Shown here: one piece after another, positions 53,692-57,860 of the stretch
How positions within the stretch are numbered: position 1 is the first letter of the stretch
How the letters are laid out: each line of letters opens with the position of its first letter
Assembly (NCBI RefSeq): GCF_050920415.1
Contig: NZ_CP169309.1
Source: Escherichia coli
Lineage (GTDB): Bacteria; Pseudomonadota; Gammaproteobacteria; Enterobacterales; Enterobacteriaceae
Reading direction: 5' to 3' (one strand)
Length of the DNA: 64,000 nt
The notes under the pieces: model-generated
Database searches by the model: none
What the model saw: only the letters and a program-made list of their open reading frames with translations
Told to the model about the DNA's origin: nothing
Program-made: the position numbers and the translations under genes

Positions 53692-54112
53692 GCTTCGCCC
53701 GGCTACGCAGTACGACACCGACGCAGTTTACGCGCTGATTTGTGAGCTAAAACAGGCGGAGTTTGACCACCACGCGTTTCGCGTGGGCTTTAACGCCAAT
53801 CTGCGCGACCCGAACATGCGCTACCATCTGGCGCTGCTGGATGGCGAAGTTGTCGGCATGATCGGCCTGCATTTGCAGTTTCATCTGCATCATGTCAACT
53901 GGATCGGCGAAATTCAGGAACTGGTGGTGATGCCGCAGGCGCGCGGTCTGAACGTCGGCAGTAAATTACTGGCATGGGCCGAAGAAGAAGCCCGCCAGGC
54001 CGGGGCCGAAATGACCGAGCTTTCCACCAACGTCAAGCGCCACGACGCGCACCGTTTCTATCTGCGCGAAGGCTACGAGCAGAGCCACTTCCGCTTCACC
54101 AAGGCGCTGTAA
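53678..54112 (+). CDS. phnO: GNAT aminoalkylphosphonate N-acetyltransferase PhnO
   Basis: GNAT motif ([26 protein letters not shown]); operon position. Confidence 0.92.
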
Positions 54113-54113
54113 C

Positions 54114-54872
54114 ATGAGCCTGACCCTCACACTTACTGGCACTGGCGGCGCACAGGGTGTTCCCGCATGGGGCTGTGAGTGCGCGGCCTGCGCCAGAGCG
54201 CGGCGCTCACCGCAGTATCGCCGCCAGCCATGCAGCGGCGTCGTGAAGTTTAACGACGCGATCACCCTGATCGACGCCGGGCTGCACGATCTCGCCGATC
54301 GCTGGTCGCCCGGATCGTTCCAGCAGTTTTTGCTGACGCACTACCATATGGATCACGTGCAGGGGCTGTTTCCGCTGCGCTGGGGCGTGGGCGATTCGAT
54401 CCCGGTCTACGGCCCGCCGGATGAACAGGGCTGCGACGATCTGTTTAAACATCCGGGCCTGCTTGATTTCAGCCACACGGTGGAGCCATTTGTGGTGTTT
54501 GATTTGCAGGGATTGCAGGTGACGCCGCTACCGCTTAACCATTCGAAACTCACTTTCGGCTATTTACTGGAAACGGCGCACAATCGGGTGGCGTGGCTGT
54601 CTGACACCGCGGGCCTGCCAGAAAACACGCTGAAATTTTTACTCAATAATCATCCGCAGGTGATGGTGATTGATTGCAGCCATCCGCCGCGCGAGGATGT
54701 GCCGCGTAATCACTGCGATTTAAACACCGTGCTGGCGCTGAATGAGATTATCCGTTCACCGCGCGTGATTCTGACGCACATCAGCCACCAGTTTGATGCG
54801 TGGCTGATGGAAAATACGCTGCCATCGGGGGTTGAGGCGGGGTTTGATGGGATGGAGATTGGGGTGGAGTGA
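54114..54872 (+). CDS. phnP: Metallo-beta-lactamase-fold phosphodiesterase PhnP
   Basis: HxHxDH motif ([10 protein letters not shown]); last gene of the operon. Confidence 0.92.
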
Positions 54873-54906
54873 TGGGTGAGGGGCGATGCCTGCTCTAGAC
54901 TCAACA

Positions 54907-55236
54907 TCACCGCCCATACTCATCTTCCATTCTCCGCTCTTCATCTTCTAGCTGCCGACGCTCCTGATCCAGCTGGCGCTGGCGATCGTCCAGCTGCTTG
55001 CGGCGATCTTCAAACTGGCGGCGGCGATCGTCATATTGTCTGCGCCGATCGTCGTTCACTTCACGCTGCCAGCCGTCGTCGCGCGAATCTTCATAGTCTC
55101 GCCCACGGTCAGGGTTATAAGCATCGTTAATCGCCTGCTGAATATTGCCAATGGTGTCGTCGATAATATCGGCCTGGGCCGGAACGGTGGACAGCGTGAG
55201 CAGGGTGAATAAAATAAATAGCGGAAAACGTTTCAT
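54907..55236 (-). CDS. yjdP: Secreted protein with highly charged D/R/Q/E-rich repetitive C-terminus (YjdP-like, 109 aa)
   Basis: Signal peptide MKRFPLFILFTLLTLSTVPAQA followed by repeats DDRRRQYDDRRRQFEDRRKQLDDRQRQLDQERRQLEDEERR. Confidence 0.7.
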   Translation of the reverse strand: MKRFPLFILFTLLTLSTVPAQADIIDDTIGNIQQAINDAYNPDRGRDYEDSRDDGWQREVNDDRRRQYDDRRRQFEDRRKQLDDRQRQLDQERRQLEDEERRMEDEYGR

Positions 55237-55304
55237 TAGCCAACCTCAAAAAGAAACTCTATCCACATTAGTCATTACTCATCCATGCAAGTAGTGGATG
55301 AATC

Positions 55305-55517
55305 TCAATTTTTCCGCTGCTCTATTGCCGTAATCGCCTCCACGCGTTGTTGATGACGACCGCCTTCGTACTGCGCGCCCAGCCACGCATCCACAATCAT
55401 TTTTGCCAGTTCGAGGCCAACCACTCGTGAACCAAAAGCCAGTGCAACTTCACTGGCGTAATGCGGATAATCAGTGCGCTCTGACGACCTGGTTTCTTTA
55501 TCAATCCCCTCACTCAT
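55305..55517 (-). pseudogene. rpiB: Decayed remnant of ribose-5-phosphate isomerase B / allose-6-phosphate isomerase (rpiB)
   Basis: 70-codon frame MSEGIDKETRSSERTDYPHYASEVALAFGSRVVGLELAKMIVDAWLGAQYEGGRHQQRVEAITAIEQRKN retains the RpiB/LacAB SxxRTDYP and C-terminal GGRHQQR segments but lacks the N-terminal MKIAxGxDHxG segment and the central GILICGTGxGxSIAANK active-site segment. Confidence 0.55.
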
Positions 55518-55874
55518 TGACTATGAATAAAAGGCTGGCACAGCAACGCAGAATCCTGCGGTGCCAGCGACATGACCGCCCATTGCTCCGGTACGTTTTT
55601 TAATAAGAAACACCGGTTGCATTGATTAATTGTGCTCAGTATTTGCCGAAGTACAATATATATAATAAATATATAAAACACCTCATATTATTTACAGAGA
55701 TAATGAATTCGCGTACTTTTCCCTCTTCAGCACAAATGCCTAATAAAATGGCTCGTTCCGCTCACACTTCCACTTATTAAAGTCGCAAATTCCCAATTAT
55801 GATAACGCCAGCTTTAAATGACGTATTTTGCATGGATTACATATTTACGACATAAATGATAAATGGAGATTTAT

Positions 55875-57860
55875 ATGAATAACTCTCGGTTATTCCGTTT
55901 GAGCAGGATTGTTATTGCGTTAACTGCCGCCAGCGGCATGATGGTAAATACCGCTCACGCAACAGATGAAGCGAAAGCCGCGACTCAATATACCCAGCAG
56001 GTTAATCAGCATTACGCAAAATCATTACCGTTTAGCGATCGTCAGGACTTTGACGATGCCCAGCGCGGATTTATCGCCCCGCTGCTGGATGAAGGTATTC
56101 TGCGCGATGCGAATGGCAAAGTTTACTACCGCGCGGATGATTACAAATTTGATATTAATGCCGCTGCGCCGGAAACCGTAAACCCCAGCCTGTGGCGTCA
56201 GTCGCAGATCAACGGCATTTCTGGCCTGTTCAAAGTCACCGATAAAATGTATCAGGTACGCGGCCAGGATATCTCTAACATTACATTCGTTGAGGGCGAG
56301 AAAGGCATTATTGTTATCGACCCACTGGTAACGCCGCCTGCCGCAAAAGCCGCACTTGACCTTTACTTCCAGCATCGTCCGCAAAAACCGATTGTTGCTG
56401 TGATTTACACCCACAGCCACGCCGACCATTATGGCGGTGTGAAAGGCATTATCTCTGAAGCGGATGTTAAATCTGGCAAAGTGCAAGTGATCGCTCCGGC
56501 AGGCTTTATGGACGAAGCCATCAGCGAAAACGTGCTGGCGGGTAACATCATGAGCCGCCGTGCGCTCTACTCTTACGGTCTGTTACTGCCGCATAACGCG
56601 CAAGGCAACGTGGGCAACGGCCTGGGCGTGACGCTGGCAACGGGCGACCCGAGCATTATTGCGCCAACCAAAACGATTGTCAGAACTGGCGAGAAGATGA
56701 TTATCGACGGCCTGGAATTTGACTTCCTGATGACTCCGGGTAGCGAAGCGCCAGCCGAAATGCACTTCTATATTCCGGCCCTGAAAGCCCTGTGTACCGC
56801 CGAAAACGCCACGCATACCCTGCACAACTTCTACACCCTGCGCGGCGCGAAAACCCGCGATACCAGCAAGTGGACAGAGTATCTGAACGAAACGCTGGAT
56901 ATGTGGGGTAACGACGCGGAAGTACTGTTTATGCCACACACCTGGCCGGTCTGGGGCAATAAGCATATCAATGATTATATTGGTAAATATCGCGATACTA
57001 TCAAATACATTCACGACCAGACCCTGCACCTGGCGAACCAGGGTTACACCATGAATGAAATTGGCGACATGATTAAGCTGCCACCTGCGCTTGCCAATAA
57101 CTGGGCCAGCCGCGGCTATTACGGTTCTGTCAGCCACAACGCCCGCGCGGTGTATAACTTCTATCTTGGCTATTACGACGGTAACCCGGCTAACCTGCAT
57201 CCGTATGGTCAGGTGGAGATGGGTAAACGTTACGTGCAAGCTCTGGGCGGTTCTGCCCGCGTTATTAACCTGGCGAAAGAAGCGAACAAGCAAGGTGATT
57301 ATCGCTGGTCGGCAGAACTGCTGAAACAGGTGATTGCCGCCAACCCGGGTGACCAGGTCGCGAAGAATCTGCAAGCGAATAACTTTGAACAGCTGGGCTA
57401 TCAGGCCGAGTCCGCCACCTGGCGCGGTTTCTACCTGACCGGCGCAAAAGAGCTGCGCGAAGGGGTGCATAAGTTCAGCCACGGCACCACCGGTTCTCCG
57501 GACACCATTCGCGGGATGTCGGTCGAAATGCTGTTCGACTTTATGGCCGTTCGCCTCGATAGCGCGAAAGCCGCAGGTAAGAATATCAGCCTGAACTTCA
57601 ATATGAGCAACGGCGATAACCTCAACCTGACGCTGAACGATAGCGTGCTTAACTACCGTAAAACGCTGCAACCTGAAGCCAACGCCTCTTTCTACATCAG
57701 CCGTGAAGATCTTCACGCCGTGCTGACCGGACAAGCCAAAATGGCGGATCTGGTAAAAGCGAAGAAAGCCAAAATTATTGGCAATGGCGCGAAACTGGAA
57801 GAAATTATTGCCTGTCTGGATAATTTCGATTTGTGGGTGAATATCGTAACCCCAAATTAA
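55875..57860 (+). CDS. yjcS: Alkyl/aryl-sulfatase of the metallo-beta-lactamase fold (YjcS, ~661 aa)
   Basis: Signal peptide, HxHxDH motif ([10 protein letters not shown]) and C-terminal SCP2-like domain; start at ATG 55875 within ORF 55863-57860. Confidence 0.85.

Follow-up and report, generated by a model that had tools for sequence, protein, structure and literature searches.

The yjdP gene of Escherichia coli: a predicted exported heptad-repeat helix with a putative RcsB-box-like promoter element

Charged single alpha-helix (CSAH or ER-K) domains are present in proteins such as myosin VI, myosin X, and caldesmon. Braun's lipoprotein, Lpp, is a lipid-anchored trimer that has a full hydrophobic core at the a and d positions and is linked to peptidoglycan. 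CpxP and Spy (LTXXQ) are periplasmic, stress-induced helical proteins with a helical hairpin cradle, and the central domain of TolA is a long, charged helix that spans the periplasm. In our study, the gene yjdP, found in a 64-kb stretch of E. coli DNA (64,000 nucleotides, hereafter the window), was compared with these systems. YjdP resembled the CSAH domains in its long unbroken predicted helix, its content of about 70% charged residues, its opposite charges at i+3 and i+4, and its charge period of approximately 7 residues. It differed from them in the use of Asp/Arg over Glu/Lys, in the presence of a conserved Leu/Gln stripe, in its predicted periplasmic location, and in its length of only about 55 residues. 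Like Lpp, YjdP is predicted to be a small exported envelope protein that is mostly heptad-repeat helix (about 55 residues, roughly 8 nm); unlike Lpp, it lacks Cys and a lipobox and has a single hydrophobic position in each heptad. It shares with CpxP and Spy a small size, predicted export, a predicted helical structure, and induction by envelope stress in the same data set; however, its single helix contrasts with their hairpin cradle, there is no sequence relationship, and no Pfam match to the LTXXQ domain was found in YjdP at E <= 1. The central domain of TolA is likewise a highly charged, repetitive, long periplasmic helix, as is predicted for YjdP, but YjdP is devoid of a membrane anchor and of TolA domains and is about five times shorter.

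The minus-strand open reading frame of the window (Table 1) was translated into the YjdP precursor, MKRFPLFILFTLLTLSTVPAQADIIDDTIGNIQQAINDAYNPDRGRDYEDSRDDGWQREVNDDRRRQYDDRRRQFEDRRKQLDDRQRQLDQERRQLEDEERRMEDEYGR. The protein was found to match the NCBIfam equivalog NF041443, "DDRRRQL repeat protein YjdP", with 145.5 bits against a cutoff of 90 (E = 5e-43), and the match spanned profile positions 1–101 of 101. The local DNA was 100% identical to that of E. coli strain MFDS1022581, where the ORF is annotated as yjdP (RefSeq WP_000819725.1) and is flanked by phnP and an rpiB pseudogene. An earlier note on this DNA had called the frame yjdP-like, and both results bear out that assignment. Compared with YjdP of K-12 (b4487), three amino-acid differences were found (L8I, S61N, and R79K). 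The K-12 gene has the same signal peptide, the same six heptads, and the same place between phnP and rpiB, and no essential difference was found in yjdP itself; around it, the window differs in having a decayed rpiB and no REP-like element in the phnP–yjdP spacer. Pfam PF28054 (YjdP) is a precomputed family on the database homologs of the window protein, and a Pfam search with a release older than PF28054 gave only sub-threshold compositional matches. The feature is a small stand-alone gene, restricted to Enterobacteriaceae and already catalogued in NCBIfam and Pfam. A literature search on yjdP, b4487, and DDRRRQL found no functional study, in agreement with the earlier description of the function as unknown.

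Table 1. Coordinates of yjdP, its parts, its upstream elements, and its neighbors in the window
Feature	Position	Strand	Description or basis
yjdP coding sequence	54907..55236	-	330-nt ORF, ATG start, 109 aa + stop
Signal peptide, residues 1-22: MKR / FPLFILFTLLTLSTV / PAQA	55171..55236	-	Heuristic n/h/c analysis; predicted cleavage after AQA, before D
Three imperfect 9-nt units TTCACCCTG CTCACGCTG TCCACCGTT (FTL LTL STV)	55183..55209	-	h-region; sequence
Conserved amphipathic N-terminal segment, residues 23-40: DIIDDTIGNIQQAINDAY	55117..55170	-	Alignment
Acidic linker, residues 41-61: NPDRGRDYEDSRDDGWQREVN	55054..55116	-	pLDDT <50 at residues 46-49
Six heptad units, residues 62-103, 21 nt each	54928..55053	-	Heptad layout; lag-7/lag-21 autocorrelation
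Predicted continuous alpha-helix, residues 54-108 (~55 residues, roughly 8 nm)	54913..55077	-	AlphaFold2
Shine-Dalgarno GAGG	55244..55247	-	7 nt 5' of ATG; GAGG/GAGA/AGG in other loci
Predicted -10 hexamer TAATGT	55265..55270	-	TAnnnT in all loci, 25 nt after box
RcsB-box-like element TGAGATTCATCCAC	55294..55307	-	Cross-genus conservation; overlaps stop codon of rpiB remnant
phnP	54114..54872	+	Convergent with yjdP; 34-nt spacer in this strain
rpiB pseudogene remnant	55305..55622	-	RefSeq: pseudogene with internal stop

The family was found to be small. An exhaustive HMMER search against 1.84 billion representative proteins gave only 55 proteins at E <= 0.001, among them many fragments and a few long, unrelated charged proteins. 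The named members came from Escherichia, Shigella, Citrobacter, a Klebsiella MAG, Buttiauxella, Cronobacter dublinensis, and Entomohabitans. One source automatically labels a YjdP homolog as a "membrane protein involved in colicin uptake"; this label reflects composition only. The window protein was aligned with 17 homologs, down to 37% identity, and a common plan was present in all of them: a signal peptide ending in A-x-A before D, a conserved segment, an acidic linker, and six heptad positions. The segment following the signal peptide was of the type DIIDDxIGNIQQAINDAY (ADIIDDxIGNIQQAINDAY with the preceding Ala), and the linker was variable in length. The residues at the heptad ends were, in order, Y, F or L, L, L, L, and L or M.

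The signal peptide contained the n-region MKR, an h-region of 15 residues with a mean Kyte-Doolittle value of 2.1, and the c-region PAQA with Ala at -3 and -1. The A-x-A cleavage site followed by D was conserved in all the aligned homologs. As the protein contains no Cys, it has no lipobox. The signal peptide reported in the earlier note is therefore of the canonical Sec/SPase-I type by its sequence features, and export is predicted. The predicted mature protein is 87 aa long and starts with the acidic DIIDD. Residues 23–40 showed the highest conservation outside the heptads and a hydrophobic moment of 1.9, and the C-terminal third of the acidic linker falls within the predicted long helix. 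The tail was composed of the units DDRRRQY, DDRRRQF, EDRRKQL, DDRQRQL, DQERRQL, and EDEERRM, followed by EDEYGR, with a hydrophobic residue at every seventh position (Y68, F75, L82, L89, L96, and M103). A repeating tail dominated by D/E/R/Q had been described in the note, and we found that D, E, R, K, and Q made up 77% of residues 44–109 and 83% of residues 62–109, in units of seven residues; the net charge of residues 62–109 was -1.

The 130 nt located 5' of yjdP were compared in nine non-redundant loci of at least five named genera: the window, O157:H7, E. fergusonii, two Citrobacter, Buttiauxella, Cronobacter, Entomohabitans, and one further contig. The gene upstream of yjdP differed among these loci (rpiB, a hybrid histidine kinase, and others). 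Only two blocks were conserved, TTGAGA.T.CTCC.CT and, exactly 25 nt later, TA...T. The first block resembles the published RcsB box, TN(G/A)GAN4TC(T/C)NA (PMC7913699): seven of the eight specified positions matched, and in every yjdP locus the final A was replaced by C. The yjdP box TGAGATTCATCC resembles osmC TGAGATTTATCC and rprA TGAGACGAATCT, and the element is close to the osmC box TGAGATTTATCCTA and the rprA box TTGAGACGAATCTGA (PMC7913699). With a transcription start inferred near 55258, the box would lie at about -49 to -36, which agrees with the rprA box, located within a fragment at -53 to -33 (PMC7913699). The 12-mer pattern TGAGANNNNTCC occurred once in the window against 1.44 occurrences expected by chance; the support for the box therefore comes from conservation and position, not from rarity. 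The conserved RcsB-box-like promoter element upstream of yjdP, as recognized from these alignments, is new in this analysis.

In a published RNA-seq study, a LolCDE inhibitor raised the RNA of K-12 yjdP 9.5- and 10.6-fold, and osmB, bdm, the wca genes, ivy, and rcsA were induced along with it (PMC5105897). The response to this inhibitor also takes in Cpx and RpoS, so the induction alone does not establish RcsB dependence. From the box, its position, and the co-induction, yjdP is likely to be a direct RcsB target. A promoter scan found no sigma-70 consensus promoter for yjdP and gave a single plus-strand match at 55188–55215, within chance expectation; the absence of such a promoter is consistent with an activator-dependent promoter. 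The search of literature and supplements found no rcsB-mutant or RcsB-binding data for yjdP and no protein-level detection. The supplement of Sastry et al. (2019) groups K-12 yjdP with rpiB in a Crp-associated expression module, and read-through from rpiB into yjdP probably also occurs in K-12. In the present strain, such read-through would no longer be possible. At the 3' side of yjdP, a search for terminators found none that was convincing, only a hairpin overlapping the stop codon (z = -1.26) with no U-tract, and an Rfam scan of 54000–56200 found no RNA family.

The structure of YjdP was predicted by an AlphaFold2 run on the monomer with the alignment of 18 sequences. The pLDDT was 89–98 over residues 61–100; residues 23–40 formed a helix of low confidence and the linker was poorly defined. 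In residues 62–109, 18 pairs of opposite charge were found at i+3 and 18 at i+4, against 10.7 +/- 2.4 in shuffled sequences (about 3 SD above), whereas like-charge pairs numbered only one at each spacing. On this model, a single unbroken helix, about 55 residues and roughly 8 nm long, is the most likely structure of the repeats. Many opposite and few like i+3/i+4 charge pairs over more than 40 residues are a mark of a charged single alpha-helix, and YjdP has them. Such a helix should also be devoid of a hydrophobic seam, whereas YjdP has the Y/F/L/L/L/M stripe, in which L89 and L96 are invariant; for this reason, the helix may form only on pairing. A lone AlphaFold2 helix is not proof of a stable helix in solution. 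We read the modeled tail as a rigid, salt-bridge-stabilized helix with one sticky face and not as a disordered polyampholyte, and the helix itself as either a monomeric rod or a weak, possibly antiparallel, module for association with itself or with a partner.

Taken together, yjdP is best explained as a gene for an exported heptad-repeat helix with an RcsB-switched promoter and rare in-frame changes of heptad number, and we hold this explanation to be reasonably probable. The acidic pairs DD/ED and the basic triplets RRR/RQR, 3–4 residues apart, would form salt bridges along the helix, and a conserved Gln-Leu stripe would run down one helix face at every seventh residue. The helix would serve as a stiff rod or as a weak self- or partner-association module, presenting the conserved N-terminal segment in the periplasm. 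RcsB, the Rcs envelope-stress regulator, would switch yjdP on from its own activator-dependent promoter; in the published RNA-seq, the gene was induced about 10-fold by a block in lipoprotein sorting. Whole heptads may be gained or lost by slippage or recombination between 8–10-nt microhomologies such as GATCGCCGC; such events are rare, and they would leave the reading frame intact and the hydrophobic stripe in phase.

A narrower proposal is that YjdP is an Rcs-induced periplasmic charged rod, whose six-heptad helix of about 8 nm acts as a spacer, a ruler, or a docking arm in the stressed envelope; we offer it as a speculation with a rather small chance of being right. An alternative form of the same proposal is that YjdP acts as an acidic/basic decoy for cationic antimicrobials or for anionic envelope polymers. 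In either form, YjdP would be the first module of the single-alpha-helix type described in the bacterial periplasm, and the (FTL)n expansion of the signal peptide in ST131-type strains, described below, would modulate export or membrane retention. The modest value of the analysis lies in a sharper, testable picture of a nearly universal orphan gene of E. coli: the tail is read from the model as a conserved helix of fixed length and not as disordered filler, and the RcsB-type box would place yjdP in the Rcs envelope-stress response, which suggests conditions under which to look for a phenotype. As a discovery it carries little weight, because the gene, the family, and the repeat motif are catalogued and an annotated RefSeq protein matches the window copy exactly.

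The strongest competitor is a true coiled coil, in which the heptads would assemble into a homodimer or homotrimer in the manner of a leucine zipper, possibly antiparallel, with oligomerization as the working principle of the protein; we regard this as doubtful, although with a real share of the probability. The strict hydrophobic residue at every seventh position, with a conserved Gln just before it, is as this explanation expects. If Leu is placed at d, the g-e' pairs in heptads 1–3 become favorable Arg-Asp/Glu pairs, and the net charge of the helix is positive in its N-terminal half and negative in its C-terminal half, a distribution that would favor antiparallel pairing. A canonical coiled coil, however, has hydrophobic residues at both a and d, whereas YjdP has a single hydrophobic position per heptad and the very unfavorable residues R, R, Q, R, and E in the other core position. 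A crude self-association model, in which two mature copies were joined by a 50-residue Gly/Ser linker and predicted with a paired alignment, gave a pTM of 0.45 with both helices at pLDDT 76–91, which is suggestive of pairing; the confidence of the helices was lower than in the monomer. A sequence search of the PDB gave only a non-significant heptad match to M protein (E = 0.58). Foldseek against the PDB found no match for the monomer model, nothing usable for the fused dimer, and no coiled-coil match, a lone helix being unsuited to such a search.

It is less probable still that the tail is an intrinsically disordered periplasmic polyampholyte, which would act by bulk charge and hydration in the manner of a hydrophilin-like protectant or an ion buffer, and which would have no fixed structure and little constraint on its exact sequence or repeat number. 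The extreme composition of residues 62–109, the lack of a fold match or a solved homolog in the two structural searches, and the co-induction of yjdP with the osmotic and desiccation genes osmB, osmY, and otsAB speak for it. The pattern of selection speaks against it. The window allele was compared with those of E. fergusonii, Citrobacter europaeus, and C. farmeri, and dN/dS over the whole gene was 0.07–0.10 between these alleles (0.05–0.10 overall), with synonymous sites near saturation. By part, the signal peptide had a dN/dS of 0.32–0.42, the N-terminal part 0.07–0.08, and the charged tail, which is the most constrained part of YjdP, about 0.04. The residues Q81, Q88, L89, L96, and R102 were invariant across genera, and the six heptads are kept across genera. 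The tail charges are ordered for intrahelical i+3/i+4 salt bridges and not scattered, and the high pLDDT of the tail also argues for a helix. The earlier term, a low-complexity polyampholyte, had implied a disordered and loosely constrained tail, and these results do not favor it.

The note had further described the tail as encoded by degenerate tandem DNA repeats. Tandem Repeats Finder reported 54973–55053 with period 21, 3.9 copies, 73% matches, and a score of 76, and the base identity was 0.63 at lag 21 and 0.62 at lag 42, against about 0.25–0.4 at other lags. In 20,000 codon shuffles, which had a mean of 0.35, the lag-21 value was never reached, and 5,000 shuffles gave no such value at any lag. 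The periodicity is thus real, as had been reported. When the same protein was re-encoded at random with synonymous codons, the identity at lag 21 was 0.624 +/- 0.029 as compared with 0.629 observed; because the resampling reproduces the observed value, the 21-nt periodicity of the DNA is an imprint of the protein heptads. Homogenization of repeats at the DNA level, or a recent DNA array, was ruled out by this test. Identical residues seven apart used the same codon 13 times against 10.6 expected, and the exact DNA repeats at lag 21 were only 8–10 nt long.

Repeat number was then compared among strains, and YjdP was found in forms of 95, 102, 109, and 123 aa, which differ in steps of seven residues. 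Among 104 cluster representatives with native ends, 58 were of the reference length, 32 were seven residues shorter, one was 14 shorter, and one, from E. albertii, was 14 longer; the other 12 had other small length differences and were mostly singletons. At least five different junctions were found among the forms that lack seven residues, which therefore arose independently. A deletion between two 9-nt copies of GATCGCCGC, which flank it in the P0040 allele, accounts for the commonest 102-aa allele, and this allele was present in 16–18 of 5,405 records, or roughly 0.3% of the complete genomes. When 60 of the 5,405 genome matches were sampled evenly, 49 were exactly 330 nt, these being all of the full-length yjdP matches in the sample, and none contained a 21-nt gap. 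The proteins of E. fergusonii and Citrobacter were also 109 aa long. The suggestion that the tail may be prone to repeat-number variation was, on these counts, overstated.

These data leave very little probability for a contingency-type locus, in which the repeat would be hypervariable and its frequently changing copy number would tune or switch the protein. The four allele lengths and the several independent junctions are what it would predict. A hypervariable tandem repeat, however, has near-perfect units and frequent changes of copy number, whereas the units of the charged tail are only about 73% alike, share exact repeats of no more than 8–10 nt, and rarely change in number within E. coli, and Citrobacter and E. 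fergusonii keep the 109-aa length. The changes in heptad steps are in frame and therefore would not switch YjdP on or off. Six heptads are the conserved state, and the charged tail is no contingency locus.

The polymorphic repeat proper of yjdP was found elsewhere in the gene. In the h-region of the signal peptide, where the window has three imperfect 9-nt units, the same site in other strains is a perfect (TTCACGCTG)n repeat, and expanded (FTL)n signal-peptide alleles of 5–11 units were present in other E. coli. This 9-nt (FTL)n repeat of other lineages is far more variable than the heptads of the tail.

yjdP and its upstream control region are intact beside the decayed rpiB. A blastn comparison with K-12 showed that the rpiB remnant lacks about 150 nt internally as well as its 5' end; no als operon is present, and yjcS comes next, at 55863. 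In K-12, the spacer between phnP and yjdP contains an extra 112-nt REP-like element that is absent in the window. The two genes are convergent in the window, K-12, Buttiauxella, and Citrobacter, and the window yjdP occupies the typical place of the family, at the distal end of the phn region in the phnP/yjdM-crfC neighborhood. Where the phn operon has been lost, yjdP still adjoins yjdM/crfC/yjcZ, which points to positional synteny rather than a phosphonate-related role; a functional link of yjdP to phosphonate metabolism was rejected because the gene stays in place after the loss.

The possibility that the minus-strand frame is not a gene, but debris of the decayed rpiB/phn boundary with non-functional repeats (the case that the earlier note had named against its own reading), draws on the adjoining rpiB pseudogene, the missing als operon, and an 84-aa ORF on the opposite strand, and has next to no probability, since the frame shows purifying selection, most of its variable sites being third codon positions (31, 22, and 84 at positions 1, 2, and 3), is matched in 5,404 of 5,426 complete E. 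coli genomes and, by the source names of cluster members, in at least five genera besides Escherichia, has a curated family model, and is inducible at the RNA level. The yjdP frame is a real gene under strong purifying selection, which is strongest in the repeats. One strain was found to carry a yjdP disrupted by IS1; the gene is therefore dispensable in at least some backgrounds.

A second repeat in yjdP was found in the signal-peptide h-region (the hydrophobic core), and it was unrelated to the repeat of the charged tail. Instead of the imperfect 9-nt units of the window sequence, many E. coli strains, O25b:H4-ST131 among them, had a perfect (TTCACGCTG)n array encoding (FTL)n (yjdP loci L003, L014, L015 and L020-L023). 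The arrays of these other E. coli contained 5, 6, 7, 9, 10 or 11 units, giving YjdP proteins of 118-136 aa with hydrophobic cores of up to ~42 residues, and the expanded 5' end of the gene matched 1,169 genome records. Compared with the charged tail of YjdP, the (FTL)n repeat of the signal peptide is much more polymorphic. A literature search for the (FTL)n repeat sequence found no paper that contains it. The positions of this repeat and of the other features are listed below.

Features in and around yjdP (window coordinates)
Feature	Position	Strand	Location or remark
Imperfect 9-nt repeat, 3 units (FTL LTL STV)	55183-55209	-	signal-peptide h-region of yjdP, window sequence
84-aa ORF	54876-55130	+	antisense to the yjdP heptad array
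phnP-yjdP spacer	54873-54906		between convergent genes
TAnnnT, predicted -10	55265-55270	-	conserved block upstream of yjdP
RcsB-box-like element	55294-55307	-	conserved block upstream of yjdP
rpiB pseudogene remnant	55305-55622	-	region up to yjcS at 55863

The N-terminus of the signal peptide was MKRHSTLFLF or MKPYSTLFLF in strains with other upstream content such as OI-167 (locus L005 of O157:H7; proteins P0016, P0021 and P0039), which is markedly different from the MKRFPLFILF of the window (55171-55236). The dS between the yjdP alleles of the window and K-12 was 0.14, a high value for E. coli. Together, the divergent N-termini and this dS suggest that the recombination break-points of the adjoining variable region extend into the 5' part of yjdP. 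The complete genome of E. coli FLI21 (L004) carries a yjdP split by an IS1X2 insertion, so that at least one natural isolate can do without the gene.

Upstream of yjdP, no blocks other than the RcsB-box-like element and the TAnnnT were conserved across the genera compared (at least five named), and the spacing between these two was fixed at 25 nt. The TGA within the box-like element doubles as the stop codon of the upstream gene, which varies: in the window and K-12 it is rpiB, and in O157:H7 and C. europaeus it encodes a hybrid histidine kinase. An internal deletion has removed ~150 nt from the rpiB remnant relative to K-12, and the remnant also lacks the 5' end of the gene. The entire alsR-alsBACEK region of K-12 is also missing from the window, so that yjcS follows directly after the remnant; in EHEC, the same junction is occupied by the OI-167 island (PMC10128022).

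Between the convergent phnP and yjdP of K-12 lies a REP-like, G-quadruplex-hairpin element of 112 nt (PMC5100583), of which ~45 nt are present in O157:H7 and which is absent from the window and strain AVS0713. No convincing terminator was found between the two genes in the spacer devoid of this element. The antisense ORF is best read as a by-product of the repetitive codons, because the variation by codon position favours the yjdP frame.
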